From a virus: a DNA stretch of 64,000 bases. The position numbers and the translations under genes are program-made. The DNA lies in IMG/VR virus record IMGVR_UViG_3300047323_000304, positions 32,001 through 96,000 of that record. One strand, given 5' to 3'. Position 1 is the first letter of the stretch. Every line of letters begins with the position of its first letter. The notes under the pieces are model-generated. The model was not told the DNA's origin. It worked only from the letters and a program-made list of their open reading frames with translations, and searched no databases. Of this stretch, positions 2,803-7,892 are shown piece by piece.

Positions 2803-4815
2803 ATGAATAAAATAGAGTTCATTAAAGATGAATTTCTTAATCCTACACCTATATTATATTTATGTAGGGGAATTATTGAAACATCATTAAAAAGCAGAGA
2901 TTTTAATACAACAGTAAATATAGTTAAATCTGATAAACAAAATGAAGTTTCTACACTTGCTTTTGATATTCCATTTTCAAAAGATAGAAAAATAACTATT
3001 GATGATTGTGATAAACTTGTAAAATTTGAAAATGATTATTATTTAATTAAGGAAATTGAAGTAGAAGATGGAAGTACCCCAAATATAAAAATATCATGTG
3101 AAAGTGAAAATACTGAACTTAAAGGAATTTACTGTGAAACAATCAATGCAATAGGCGTTTCACCTTATGATATGTATTTGGCTATTATGAATTCAGTTAG
3201 ACATCCAATTGATTTAACAAAAAATTATAAATGGGCAGGAACAGATGTTGTCAATAAATTTAGACATTTGCAATGCGAAGAAGAACAATCTGTATTTCAA
3301 AATTTCGTATCTTTAGCAGAAGTCTTTAATGGTTGGCTTGAATTTACTACTGATGAGAGTGGACAAAATTGGATTTTCTTGAGAACCCAAGAAATAGATG
3401 ATGGGAAATTTATTAAAAAAAATCTTGATATGAAAACATTAAATATAACATCTGATAGTAAAGAGATATTTACTCAAGTTGAGTTATTCGGAAAACAAGA
3501 TGAACTAACAGGTCAAGAAATAAATATAATGACAGTTAATCCAAATGGGAAAAGTTGTTTAGAAAATTATAGTTATTATCTTTCAAAAGGAATTCCAACA
3601 AGTAATATAGATAATGAACCTAAATATCAACAATTAAAAGTTATTAGAGACGAAAAGTACACAACACCTCAAGATTTATATGATATGGGAATTGAAGAAT
3701 TAGCAAAATGTTCAATTCCTAAAATAGATGCGTCTCTTACGCTTAGCGATTTATCTATACATATAGATAGTCCAATTATACCTCCAGTAGTTGGTCATAA
3801 GCTTTTATGTATTGACAAAGATATAGATTTTATTTTTACGTGTAAGATTATTGGTGTAGAAAGACCATATAATAATCCTGCTGATGTAAAAATTGAAATC
3901 TCAAATGTAAATAGGTATGATACAGCGTATCAAAACATAAATCATACTGTAGATAATGCAAATAAAGTAATAAGTACAGACCCAACTAATACAGATGGTC
4001 AAAATACAGGAGATTCTAAACCCTACATAAAAATGAGCGATTGTAAAGATGGTGATCACTGGAATGCAACTAAAAGATTTGCTGATACATATTCATTGGC
4101 AACTCAACAAAGTGACCTCATTTCTCTAAGAGTTGATGAACAAAATCAATCATTTGCGGAGCTTCAGGTCACAGCAAATATGATTTCAACTCATGTGGAA
4201 GATATAAGTGATACAAATCATAGAGTATATTCAGAAATACAACAAACAGCTAGAAATATAAAAGCTGTTGTAGTAGAAGATCAAGATAGTGGAAGTGTAG
4301 AATTAAATAAAGATAAATTTGTAGTTGCCTTTAATGGTAGTACAAATAGAAATGCAGTAATAGATAGAAATGTAGGTTTAATACTGGGAAATCCTGACAC
4401 TGGAACGTTTAGCCAAATAGAATATGGTGGTAAATTATCTTTAATGATGCAAGGAGAGAAGCATCCATATCATTGTTTAGTAGATGGAGGAGTTAGAAGT
4501 TTTGAATGTACAGATAGTGGATATACAACATTTTATATTAATCTGCCAAATAAGTTTTCAGGAATAGATGATTCAGAAATAACAGTTATTTCAAGTGTTA
4601 GAAAAGTTTATGATACAAATATTGATTCTACAAACAATATTTGTTTTTGGTTTGGTTGCTATGCCAGTTGTGTAAATGGGAGAATCCAAGTCGATGTGAT
4701 GAGTAAGTGGAGAACTGTACAATATGAAGATGACTCAAATGGAGATAGTTGGGTAAAGGATATTAACGGTGAAAAGAATGGACTGATTGATATTTCATAT
4801 GTTATAATAGCATAA
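2803..4815 (+). CDS. Phage tail endopeptidase/tail-spike (Tal-like) protein
   Basis: 670 aa, GGAGG RBS; KLVKFENDYYLIKEI, IFTQVELFGK, final SLTLSDLS...VGHKLLCIDKDIDF..CKIIGVERPYNNPADVKIEISN architecture typical of prophage tail proteins. Confidence 0.75.
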   Translation: MNKIEFIKDEFLNPTPILYLCRGIIETSLKSRDFNTTVNIVKSDKQNEVSTLAFDIPFSKDRKITIDDCDKLVKFENDYYLIKEIEVEDGSTPNIKISCESENTELKGIYCETINAIGVSPYDMYLAIMNSVRHPIDLTKNYKWAGTDVVNKFRHLQCEEEQSVFQNFVSLAEVFNGWLEFTTDESGQNWIFLRTQEIDDGKFIKKNLDMKTLNITSDSKEIFTQVELFGKQDELTGQEINIMTVNPNGKSCLENYSYYLSKGIPTSNIDNEPKYQQLKVIRDEKYTTPQDLYDMGIEELAKCSIPKIDASLTLSDLSIHIDSPIIPPVVGHKLLCIDKDIDFIFTCKIIGVERPYNNPADVKIEISNVNRYDTAYQNINHTVDNANKVISTDPTNTDGQNTGDSKPYIKMSDCKDGDHWNATKRFADTYSLATQQSDLISLRVDEQNQSFAELQVTANMISTHVEDISDTNHRVYSEIQQTARNIKAVVVEDQDSGSVELNKDKFVVAFNGSTNRNAVIDRNVGLILGNPDTGTFSQIEYGGKLSLMMQGEKHPYHCLVDGGVRSFECTDSGYTTFYINLPNKFSGIDDSEITVISSVRKVYDTNIDSTNNICFWFGCYASCVNGRIQVDVMSKWRTVQYEDDSNGDSWVKDINGEKNGLIDISYVIIA

Positions 4816-5225: not shown

Positions 5226-6020
5226 GTGTTAAATATGAAAAAGTCAATTAAAAAATTAATAACCTTGATTATTGCAACTACTACAATTTTAGGTACATCA
5301 GTTACAGCAAACGCAGAATGGAAACAAGACACTAATGGTTGGTGGAATACAGAAGGAAATTCTTATTCGACTGGTTGGAGAAATATTGACAACAAATGGT
5401 ATTATTTCGATAATAATGGGTATATGAAAACTGGTTGGTATCAAGATGCTGATGGAAAATACTATTATCTACAAACAGATGGAAGTATGGCTACCAATAT
5501 AACTACACCAGATGGATATAAAGTTGACGATAAAGGAGTTTGGGTGAAAACAACTAGTAATGCTATTAGTACAACAAATACAACTCAAAATCAAGTTGCT
5601 ACTAATGCAACAAATAGCACAAATAATCAAACTACATCATCTACTAGTAATGCAAGTTCAAGTTCTTCATCAAGTAGTAGTTCGTCATCAAGTAATTCAA
5701 ATAATAGTTCTAATAAAAATTATGTTTCTATATTTTATTTAAAAAATGATAATAATAAAATTACTGATGCAGGAACAGGTAAACAAACATTAGGATATTT
5801 TGGGCAAGAAAACTTAATAGAAACTGAGAAACAATATGGATTATTATATATAAATGCTAATGACTACGGAAAAACCGCGAAAGATTTTGCTAGAGAAGTA
5901 TTTGATAATTACGAAATAATCAATGATAATGGAATAGCAAAATTAGTAAAGAAATCAATACCCACTACATCCAATGCAACTACTCAAACAACTACATCCT
6001 CAGCAGTAACAGCATTATAG
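5226..6020 (+). CDS. Secreted cell-wall (choline-type) binding-repeat protein with S/T/N-rich linker (moron)
   Basis: Signal peptide ending ANA; WKQDTNGWW, WRNIDNKWYYF, WYQDADGKYYYL repeats; poly-Ser tract; own TTGACA promoter near 5111. Confidence 0.85.
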   Translation: MLNMKKSIKKLITLIIATTTILGTSVTANAEWKQDTNGWWNTEGNSYSTGWRNIDNKWYYFDNNGYMKTGWYQDADGKYYYLQTDGSMATNITTPDGYKVDDKGVWVKTTSNAISTTNTTQNQVATNATNSTNNQTTSSTSNASSSSSSSSSSSSSNSNNSSNKNYVSIFYLKNDNNKITDAGTGKQTLGYFGQENLIETEKQYGLLYINANDYGKTAKDFAREVFDNYEIINDNGIAKLVKKSIPTTSNATTQTTTSSAVTAL

Positions 6021-6050
6021 ATAATTAGTAAAAAAATAACAAAAAACATA

Positions 6051-6079
6051 TTGACATTAATAAACATTAGACATATAAT
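6051..6079 (+). promoter_or_regulatory. Consensus sigmaA promoter driving a short RNA
   Basis: TTGACA(6051-6056)-17nt-TATAAT(6074-6079). Confidence 0.8.
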
Positions 6080-6084
6080 AGTAA

Positions 6085-6166
6085 TTGTAAAGAAGTTATA
6101 TAATAAAATTCTACAAAGCATTTTATTTTAGATAAGACATTGATTGGTACTCAGTGTCTTATTTTT
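6085..6166 (+). ncRNA. Putative ~80-nt antitoxin/small RNA
   Basis: Consensus promoter, no ORF, ends in 12-bp stem ATAAGACATTGA/TCAGTGTCTTAT (G.U on this strand) + U tract; 5' end estimated. Confidence 0.55.
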
Positions 6167-6303
6167 ATGTCCAAAATAAAGGACTTTCTAATTATATTAC
6201 TTACCATCTCACGTAATTGGTACTTACGCTTTTAAAATATATAATTATAGTCATCCTTATATTAATTATCTTATCATCTGTTCATTAAAATGTATTAATG
6301 GGC

Positions 6304-6402
6304 TTAAACAAAGTGTAATACTACAGTTAAAACAATATTAATTATAGCTATAACAATAGTTTCATCTAAATGATTTTTCAAGAAATCCACAAAGCTTTTT
6401 AT
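6304..6402 (-). CDS. Putative type I toxin-like hydrophobic peptide (28-32 aa)
   Basis: GGAGG RBS then ATA (or GTG at 6390): IKSFVDFLKNHLDETIVIAIINIVLTVVLHFV*; promoter TTGTAT-17-TG.TATAAT at 6477-6449. Confidence 0.5.
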   Translation of the reverse strand: MKSFVDFLKNHLDETIVIAIINIVLTVVLHFV

Positions 6403-6629
6403 TTTAATCGCCTCCCTTCCCAATGGGATGTTTCAAGATGGCAATTAAATTATATCACTTATTACTAGAATATACAATTTAATACAAAAAACTATTAATA
6501 ACTTAGTGTAATATTTACTAGGTTGTTTTATTATGTCAAAAATTACTATACTATCAAGAATGTATAAACAAAATAAAAAGAATATATTAAAATAAAAACA
6601 CAATTTTAAAAGAAAGTTGGTGAGTAAAT

Positions 6630-6842
6630 TTGCCAAGTATATTAACAACAAAACATCAAGAAGCACAAGATGCTATTGCTAAAATGAACCAAAAATATAT
6701 AGATTCAAATATACAACTTAATAAAACAAAAGATGAAGGATTCAAAACATTAGAGAATAAATTAAAAGATGAAGCAGATTATCAGAAAAATACATTATTG
6801 AATGCTTATAAAGATATGAATGATTTACCCCCTGATGTATAG
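6630..6842 (+). CDS. Hypothetical protein
   Basis: 70-aa ORF with TTG start, upstream of the BppU-like gene. Confidence 0.45.
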   Translation: MPSILTTKHQEAQDAIAKMNQKYIDSNIQLNKTKDEGFKTLENKLKDEADYQKNTLLNAYKDMNDLPPDV

Positions 6843-6881
6843 TAAATAAAGTATAAATAATGAAAGGAGTTGATTGATTAA

Positions 6882-7892
6882 ATGGCAAATACAAGTATAT
6901 TTCAGATTGATAATATGGATGTTGATTTAAAAACATATGTAAAGCTTAGATGTAAATCATGTTTGGGGGATTCAGTAATATTCAAATTTTTAGTATACAA
7001 TGAATCAAGTCCAGTAAATTTATCTGATTATAAAATAGAATTTCGTGCAAGATTACCAAAATCAGGACAAGTATATTCTGAAACAGATAATATAACAATG
7101 AATGGAAATGAATTAACTGTAACCTGTGATAATGTTCTTACATCTGAAATAGGAGAATGTATAATTACATTGCGTTTGGTTGATATAATTACATATAAAC
7201 AAAAATCAAATTATATTATTATATTAAAGGTAATGTCTACAATAGATGCTGATGAAGAAATACAAACGAGTAGTACACTTAGTGCACTTTCTTCACTTGA
7301 TTATGCAATAGACAGATATTTTGAATTAAAGGTTGATTTATTAGACCAAATAACAATAGGAAATTTATTGCTAAATAATTTAATATCAAATATAGCCACA
7401 GGTAGCACATTAAATACAAGTTTAATAACACAAAATACAAATGCATCTTTAAATATATCTACATTAATAACCCAAAACAATCAAGCAACAAATAATATAT
7501 CAACATTAACAACTAAAAATAACCAAGCTACGAATAATGTTTCAGTATTAACAACTAAAAATAATGAAGCAATAACTAATACAAATAATTTAAATAACTC
7601 GATTAATATAGGGACTTCTTTAAATTCAAGTCTACATACTGAAAATATAATAGGAACAAAACTATTAGTAGATTTAAATAATGCTAATTCATTAATAAAT
7701 AAAAAAATAGATGACCACATTAACGATAATAATAGGCATTTAAGTATTGGAGAAAGAGAGTCATGGAATATGTATGCTACTCAAATAAATGATATAGCAA
7801 AATTAATTGATATTTTAATGGGTACTACTACAATTGTCACTGAAAATGGAGATAATATTATAACAGAAACAGGTGATATTTTAATCCTATAA
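6882..7892 (+). CDS. BppU-family baseplate upper protein with heptad repeats
   Basis: FKFLVYNESSPVNLSDYKIEFRARLPKSG N-terminus; repeated LITQNNQATNNISTL coiled-coil units. Confidence 0.75.
   Translation: MANTSIFQIDNMDVDLKTYVKLRCKSCLGDSVIFKFLVYNESSPVNLSDYKIEFRARLPKSGQVYSETDNITMNGNELTVTCDNVLTSEIGECIITLRLVDIITYKQKSNYIIILKVMSTIDADEEIQTSSTLSALSSLDYAIDRYFELKVDLLDQITIGNLLLNNLISNIATGSTLNTSLITQNTNASLNISTLITQNNQATNNISTLTTKNNQATNNVSVLTTKNNEAITNTNNLNNSINIGTSLNSSLHTENIIGTKLLVDLNNANSLINKKIDDHINDNNRHLSIGERESWNMYATQINDIAKLIDILMGTTTIVTENGDNIITETGDILIL

Follow-up and report, generated by a model that had tools for sequence, protein, structure and literature searches.

A 609-bp gap in the tail-gene region of a large phage appears to hold a compact antisense switch, in which a small RNA (sRNA) of about 80 nucleotides (nt) would control a convergently transcribed gene for a 32-residue membrane peptide. 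The gap lies within the window, the 64,000-nt stretch formed by bases 32001-96000 of the 193,897-bp IMG/VR virus record IMGVR_UViG_3300047323_000304. We propose that the locus is probably a type I toxin-antitoxin (TA)-style module working like par of pAD1, with a new peptide family, and we are confident that it exerts antisense control over a real peptide. It combines a gene for a small (<60 amino acids) hydrophobic peptide with an RNA predicted to base-pair with the peptide's mRNA, the pair of components by which type I systems are recognized. As judged from its sequence, this switch is real and previously uncatalogued, its toxin role being assigned from the architecture. Our comparative evidence rests on three syntenic lineages: the window and two relatives, L006 and L045. 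It is this three-lineage comparison that reveals the two putative transcription units, the peptide, both complementarities between the RNAs, and the co-variation of these complementarities.

The first complementarity lies over the start codon. The longest direct repeat in the gap, overlooked in the initial annotation, is a 24-nt sequence present at 6107-6130 and 6383-6406, and only 1 in 500 dinucleotide-shuffled versions of the gap contained a repeat of such quality. The sRNA and the mRNA carry this repeat in opposite senses, which makes the sRNA complementary to an mRNA stretch that begins 5 nt past the Shine-Dalgarno (SD) sequence and runs through the ATA start codon and the next six codons. 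In the window, the predicted duplex between sRNA and start site has an energy of -22.6 kcal/mol, a value that no shuffle out of 2000 attained. Among 5116 scanning windows of the 64 kb, the start site is the best non-self target of the 5' part of the sRNA. Both repeat copies have changed in L045, and their new sequences match each other. Accordingly, the specificity of pairing can be followed across the lineages: against the start sites of the window, L006, and L045, respectively, the sRNA 5' parts of the window and of L006 each give -22.6, -20.8, and -8.7 kcal/mol, and that of L045 gives -12.4, -13.9, and -21.3 kcal/mol. Each of the three cognate energies (-22.6, -20.8, and -21.3 kcal/mol) is reached by at most 1 of 1000 shuffles, the shuffle mean being about -9.5 kcal/mol. 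This comparison supports the view that the long repeat supplies a par-type translation block; the sRNA copy of the repeat co-varies with its target.

The second complementarity joins the loop of the sRNA terminator (T1) to a hairpin in the 3' untranslated region (3'UTR) of the mRNA (hairpin 2). Both this hairpin, with the core CGTAA-TTGGTAC-TTACG at 6212-6228, and the 9-nt direct repeat ATTGGTACT at 6143 and 6216 had been described in the initial annotation and are present as claimed. The loops of sRNA and mRNA are complementary because hairpin 2 carries the same + strand loop word as T1. This word reads TTGGTAC in T1 and TTGGTAC in hairpin 2 of the window, GTGCAAA and GTGCAAA in L006, and GTGGTG and GTGGTG(A) in L045; the two loops thus share one word within each phage and differ between all three phages. 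For the window/L006 comparison alone, the probability of reaching such identity by independent change is about 3.5e-4.

The stems indicate on which RNA each hairpin folds. In hairpin 2, two pairs have changed on both sides, and one pair in L006 is G.U on the - RNA and A.C on the + strand; this hairpin folds better on the - strand in the window and L006, with no clear strand preference in L045. In T1, the changes between lineages are all wobble-compatible on the + RNA, except for an innermost pair that turns from A-U to U-A, and a 19-mer at the 3' arm is invariant. The stability of T1 on the + versus the - strand is -14.4 versus -10.1, -15.6 versus -12.1, and -13.9 versus -7.8 kcal/mol in the three lineages, being weaker on the - strand because its wobble pairs would be mismatches there. 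These strand-specific wobbles and compensatory pairs assign T1 to the sRNA and hairpin 2 to the mRNA. T1 was rejected as a bidirectional terminator, given its U-tract on the + side only and its lower stability on the - strand of every lineage. An extended palindrome around it, lacking a U-tract on the - side, was discarded as an mRNA terminator.

The repeated 7- to 9-mers are, as DNA, direct repeats, and might be read as sites for a phage DNA-binding protein rather than as RNA loops. We regard this as very improbable: each repeat sits in a hairpin loop whose stem shows compensatory or wobble changes, the spacing of the repeats differs by lineage (73, 78, and about 84 bp), and the specificity of the protein would need to have changed three times. 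Nor do we give real credence to a chance arrangement in AT-rich intergenic DNA. Promoter-like sites are indeed common (19 found versus 12.9 expected), and the whole-length duplex energy is not special for AT-rich RNA (P of 0.07), but the shuffle tests, the rank of the target, and the co-variation in three lineages all speak against chance.

Both transcription units proposed in the initial annotation are recognizable. The 193,897-bp record has five perfect consensus promoters, of which that of the sRNA alone lies on the + strand; both of its hexamers are invariant in L006 and L045, the spacer in L045 being 16 nt plus a TG. The predicted sRNA, with its terminator loop at 6144-6150, folds at -17.7 kcal/mol (z of -3.3), and its consensus fold across lineages retains the terminator alone. 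Its 5' part is identical at 45 of 46 positions (98%) between the window and L006, compared with about 68 to 72% for the flanking coding DNA; no conserved target was found for the invariant 5' end itself. On the opposite strand, the extended -10 element TGnTATAAT is kept in the three lineages, with spacers to the -35 element of 17, 19, and 17 nt, and the predicted start G lies 7 nt past the -10 element in all three. A second + strand promoter inside the locus (TTGGTA-17-TATAAT, 6217-6245) was rejected, as its -35 element is not conserved. Likewise discarded as a second locus was the segment at 136764-136836 of the record (L002, - strand), which has a perfect consensus promoter and, over 75 nt that extend into the first transcribed bases, 78% identity to the sRNA promoter region; the resemblance is confined to the promoter, which stands ahead of an ordinary operon.

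The terminator scan also detected T2, another + strand terminator, which lies immediately past the peptide promoter. T2 is only 39% identical to its L006 counterpart, yet a 12-bp + strand hairpin followed by a T-run is kept in all three lineages, with energies of -10.7, -10.4, and -12.7 kcal/mol on the + strand versus -1.7, -2.3, and -5.8 kcal/mol on the - strand. Such conservation implies + strand transcription, or read-through, across the peptide gene, which may possibly yield a longer antisense RNA or insulate the downstream fiber genes. One could accordingly take the + RNA for nothing but a terminated leader, like the 6S RNA of lambda PR'-tR', or for the promoter/terminator insulation of an inserted cassette, the complementarity being incidental: the sRNA promoter has the orientation of the tail genes, and the conservation of two successive + strand terminators implies + transcription across the region. 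This explanation seems improbable to us, as it leaves unexplained both the co-variation of sRNA with start site and of loop with loop and the conserved - strand promoter, SD sequence, and open reading frame (ORF).

The initial annotation gave the peptide 28 to 32 residues, and it is the longer form that stood: the reading frame from ATA 6402 is the only one open in both the window and L006, and L045 encodes a called 32-residue homolog (P0024) whose methionine aligns with the ATA column at the same 8-nt SD spacing, which also bears out the noncanonical start proposed earlier. The 28-residue version starting at GTG 6390 fell, this codon being GTA in L006 and ATT in L045, and a 39-residue version from TTG 6423, the mechanically called ORF, was rejected because it contains the SD sequence and is out of frame in L006. 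With both of these starts excluded, the product would be 32 residues from ATA. The peptide genes of the window and L045 differ at 31 nt without a single indel, and 31 random substitutions left an open frame with a BLOSUM score of at least 85 in 5e-5 of trials. The peptide is under protein-level constraint (P of about 5e-5); the window/L006 pair by itself provides weak coding evidence (P of about 0.16).

All three peptides share a polar N-terminal half of the form K-x-F-V/I-D/E-F-L-K/R-x-H-x-D, better conserved than the hydrophobic membrane helix, which forms the C-terminal part and ends in H-F-V/C; they contain no proline and no PXXXG motif, and they carry at most one terminal lysine. These properties bear on the most substantial alternative, in which the antisense control is the same and the peptide, its dose set by the sRNA, is not a toxin but a small membrane protein with a dedicated phage role, such as superinfection exclusion, lysis timing, or the regulation of a membrane partner. 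We consider this alternative rather unlikely, though worth serious attention. The better-conserved N-terminal half hints at a specific partner over plain membrane damage, the layout of the peptide is the reverse of that of classic type I toxins, and the peptide matches no family. A weak start, layered repression, a strong sRNA promoter set against a weak mRNA promoter, and fast-changing loops are, on the other hand, typical of addiction modules (PMC7472228, PMC5416894), which is no more than suggestive.

The start codon is ATA in the window and L006 and ATG in L045, where C replaces U at the facing position of the sRNA. Initiation at AUA in E. coli proceeds at roughly 1 to 2% of the AUG level (bioRxiv 10.1101/063800), and such a level would suit a toxic product. 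This usage gains independent support from other phage contigs, where the same 19-nt cassette of SD, spacer, and ATA (GGGAGGCGATTAAA-ATA-AA; window 6398-6416) heads an unrelated ORF of about 194 amino acids, which has no ATG, GTG, or TTG near its SD sequence. The homologs P0002 and P0012 of this ORF have their methionine exactly at the ATA column, and L029 reads AAAGGA-9nt-ATG AAT CAA. These alignments suggest recurrent AUA initiation in these phages; AUA would then count among the start codons of low-GC phages. Gene callers choose a GTG inside the SD sequence for the 194-residue ORF, and an upstream CUCCC can also mask its SD sequence.

The mRNA outside the coding region is conserved in several places. 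The ribosome binding site of the initial annotation corresponds to the SD sequence GGGAGG at 6416-6411, invariant in the three lineages, with an unchanged 8-nt spacing to ATA or ATG. Its GGGA can pair with an upstream UCCC (6428-6425), a stem present in the three-lineage consensus fold. A second GGGA word stands just upstream of the SD sequence (within 6411-6428), and the lone UCCC further upstream can pair with either; kept in three lineages, this arrangement could be a decoy or switch for SD masking. The pairing of the mRNA ends proposed in the initial annotation likewise holds: the 5' end GCCAUCUU (6442-6435) and GAGAUGGU (6210-6203) form a helix of -11.2 kcal/mol. This helix, GCCAUCUY with GAGAUGGU, has 8 bp in all three lineages and in the consensus fold, with a single change from U.G to C-G, and ACCATCTCA stays the same even between the differing flanks of L045. 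Besides the conserved 3'UTR block that directly follows the stop codon, a second one at 6176-6211 is 97% identical to L006. A fold-back of 6168-6204 onto the start site was equaled by 344 and 595 of 1000 shuffles, no better than chance, and pairing of the post-stop block with the early coding region, suggested by RNAalifold, also did no better than shuffles. The sequence features that the initial annotation named are all present, and its RNA-level claims are each supported by the comparative evidence.

In the mechanism that we propose, the strong host-type promoter would produce the sRNA of about 80 nt, and the weaker convergent promoter would produce the mRNA for the 32-residue membrane peptide, whose translation would already be throttled by the AUA start and by the possible SD-masking stem. 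The terminator loop of the sRNA would dock on the complementary 3'UTR loop in a kissing complex; the sRNA would then pair over about 22 nt of the start codon and first codons, blocking ribosomes. Were the supply of sRNA to stop, whether because the prophage is lost or because transcription is shut off, peptide synthesis would follow and the membrane would be damaged. In this scheme, the RNA ends, the binding order, the relative stabilities of the RNAs, the toxicity, and the biological role are what we infer.

Several points weigh against this mechanism. The peptide matches no known toxin family, and its layout (polar N terminus, hydrophobic C terminus, no charged tail) reverses the one usual in type I systems (PMC7699646, PMC7472228). 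The fold of the 5'UTR is no better than that of shuffled sequences, so that SD masking is not energetically significant; both conserved 3'UTR blocks are without a statistically supported pairing partner; and the terminator scan found no terminator for the mRNA on the - strand. Finally, the lineages are only three, two of which are close to each other.

Table 1. Features of the locus and its surroundings; positions refer to the window unless a contig is named
Feature	Position	Strand	Remarks
Prophage_tail protein gene	2803-4815	+	tail module
Secreted choline-binding-repeat protein gene	5226-6020	+	signal peptide, three choline-binding Pfam families
Gap holding the TA-like locus			609 bp, between the choline-binding-repeat gene and the 70-residue gene
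sRNA promoter	6051-6079	+	TTGACA-17-TATAAT, 12/12 consensus match
Predicted antisense sRNA, antitoxin candidate	6086-6167	+	about 80 nt; ends inferred from promoter and terminator
Anti-start-site segment of sRNA, repeat copy 1	6107-6130	+	21/24 direct repeat with 6383-6406
Terminator T1	6132-6167	+	12-bp stem 6132-6143/6151-6162, loop TTGGTAC 6144-6150, U-tract
3' partner of mRNA 5' end, GAGAUGGU	6203-6210	-	8-bp helix with 6442-6435
Hairpin 2 in the 3'UTR	6211-6229	-	loop GUACCAA 6223-6217, complementary to T1 loop
Conserved 3'UTR block directly after the stop codon	6263-6303	-	90% identical to L006; core kept in L045
32-codon ORF	6304-6402	-	ATA start 6402-6400, TAA stop 6306-6304
sRNA target over start codon and codons 2-7, repeat copy 2	6383-6406	-	21/24 repeat
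SD sequence GGGAGG	6411-6416	-	8 nt ahead of ATA
Predicted mRNA 5' end, GCCAUCUU	6435-6442	-	start at G6442
Peptide-mRNA promoter	6449-6477	-	extended -10 TGaTATAAT 6457-6449; weak -35 TTGTAT 6477-6472; 17-nt spacer
Terminator T2	6497-6535	+	just beyond the peptide promoter
70-residue gene, then fiber-like genes	from 6630	+	tail module
ORF of about 194 amino acids with SD-spacer-ATA cassette	L019:7775-8370 (also L020-L022, L031)		no ATG, GTG, or TTG near SD

Around the locus, the large genes all lie on the + strand and form a tail module. The source record has 26% G+C and a CheckV completeness of 78%, and the relatives of its Prophage_tail protein are only distant (about 23% identity), among Firmicutes phages. 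Five tyrosine-recombinase (Phage_integrase) genes (61347-64711, 150354-150860, and 180629-182868 of the record; L024 to L028) make a temperate lifestyle likely, and the virus is probably a large, temperate Firmicutes-type phage. In each of the three lineages, the choline-binding-repeat gene accompanies the module, and because no terminator precedes T1, the 3'UTR of its mRNA would contain the whole sRNA sequence. Bases 5730-7742 of the window (2013 bp) recur with 100% identity on a 62.5-kb Logan contig from an independent run (SRR26075501, L046), so the sequence of the locus is not an assembly artifact. By the same match, the phage recurs in another sample.

The initial annotation had called for a search for homologous loci. 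The standard collections, probed with the DNA and with the peptide, gave none, and both syntenic relatives were reached by other means. L006, an 85-kb IMG/VR contig, was found via the tail protein (78% protein identity) and holds the same gap, with a mean column identity of 86% (alignment A1). L045, a 6.9-kb contig with the same gene order as the window, was found via P0024 (expectation value [E] of 1.5e-5) when a profile of the two peptides was searched against 1.84 billion representative proteins, and the run ERR14653894 carries the L045 type; the top match of that search, P0023, was spurious, being a repetitive protein of 2448 residues. A DNA search of the phage collection with the locus gave no match, and cmscan of 5800-6900 against Rfam (E up to 10) gave no family match, only three chance-level ones; the best of these, ctRNA_pT181, scored 21.7 bits where the gathering score is 56. 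When viral, metagenome, and genome collections were scanned for exact patterns, only the L006 phage again (L018 and L023) or unrelated chance matches (L019 to L022 and L032 to L044) came up. The flanking proteins of 70 and 336 residues found nothing among viral contigs, nor did the tail protein among genome contigs, and the C-terminal domain of the choline-binding protein gave no match as a probe. The peptide itself had no match in Pfam or NCBIfam (both at E up to 10) or in PHROGs, in a word-based protein search, or in tblastn against 50,697 phage records (E up to 10); the ESM Atlas offered weak leads only, below 0.8.

Going further, the locus might represent a new phage-borne type I TA family in which kissing loops and the start-site duplex set specificity, versions are mutually non-neutralizing, and an AUA/AUG choice tunes the dose, a proposal that we put forward tentatively and with more doubt than conviction. 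If it holds, specificity would be set by a fast-evolving loop pair (the terminator loop against a dedicated 3'UTR hairpin) together with a co-evolving start-site duplex. Non-neutralizing versions in related prophages would then form specificity classes for addiction or competition, comparable to plasmid incompatibility groups, and natural switching between AUA and AUG starts would tune toxin dose. The three natural variants offer ready-made compensatory mutants for loop-loop recognition, start-codon pairing, and start-codon strength, and these natural part swaps allow direct tests of type I specificity and mechanism. Modules of this kind would escape gene callers as well as Rfam and Pfam, even in the middle of a tail operon.

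Among known systems, par/Fst of the Enterococcus faecalis plasmid pAD1 is the closest in logic. Its conserved features are convergent promoters, a short antitoxin RNA, oppositely read direct repeats whose pairing covers the start codon of the toxin, a first contact between loops, a helix at the mRNA 5' end, and an SD-masking stem (PMC7472228). All but the last have a predicted counterpart here, including the first contact through the terminator loop and the helix that conceals the 5' end of the mRNA; an SD-masking stem is possible. Both toxin genes would start at a non-AUG codon (GUG in fst and AUA here). Unlike in par, however, the terminator is neither shared nor bidirectional, the terminator loop meets its kissing partner in a 3'UTR hairpin of its own rather than in the terminator, and one long repeat, joined in two lineages by a short second one, takes the place of DRa and DRb. 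The 5' end of the mRNA pairs with the 3'UTR instead of a nearby upstream helix, which makes it an analog and not the same helix, and there is no Rfam (e.g., fstAT) or Pfam match. Toxins of the Fst/Ldr group combine a hydrophobic N-terminal helix, a PXXXG(C) motif, a conserved tryptophan, and a charged C-terminal tail; our peptide has neither the PXXXG motif nor the charged tail. Of the logic invoked by the initial annotation, the oppositely read repeats and the kissing loops stand. Since the shared terminator and the Fst/Ldr peptide both fail, the locus would work like par without being a member of its family; it would show that oppositely read direct repeats can supply par-style pairing even without a shared terminator.

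The hok/sok system of plasmid R1 has a 5'-3' fold-back in the toxin mRNA and a post-segregational logic, both likewise proposed here. Unlike hok/sok, our locus has no mok-like leader ORF, and Sok overlaps the 5' region; two candidate start-site partners for a hok-like fold-back were tested here, and neither beat shuffles. AapA1 of Helicobacter pylori is a toxin of about 30 residues with a polar N-terminal and a hydrophobic C-terminal half, as in the peptide described here. In aapA1/IsoA1, as in our model, a long-distance helix joins the 5' and 3' ends of the mRNA and kissing loops set antitoxin specificity; in contrast, IsoA1 overlaps the 5'UTR as a true antisense RNA, and activation by 3' processing has been demonstrated (PMC5416894). 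The sequences and host phylum of that system are unrelated to those of our locus. SR4, the antitoxin of the bsrG/SR4 pair in the SPbeta prophage of Bacillus subtilis, overlaps the 3' end of bsrG mRNA. This pair, too, is a prophage locus, and SR4 is reported to affect the decay as well as the translation of the toxin mRNA (PMC3834814). Unlike in bsrG/SR4, the translation block here would come from predicted direct pairing over the start codon. The TA systems of Clostridioides difficile prophages (CD0977.1/RCd11 and others) similarly reside in low-GC Firmicutes and pair a small membrane peptide with an antisense RNA; their toxins differ in having a hydrophobic N terminus, a lysine-rich tail, and ATG starts, and their antitoxins overlap the toxin transcript (PMC7699646). 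With its reversed layout, our peptide would thus form a new family outside both the Fst/Ldr and the C. difficile toxins. The C. difficile type I systems were shown to stabilize the prophage (PMC7699646), and, by analogy, prophage stabilization would most likely be the role of the module described here.

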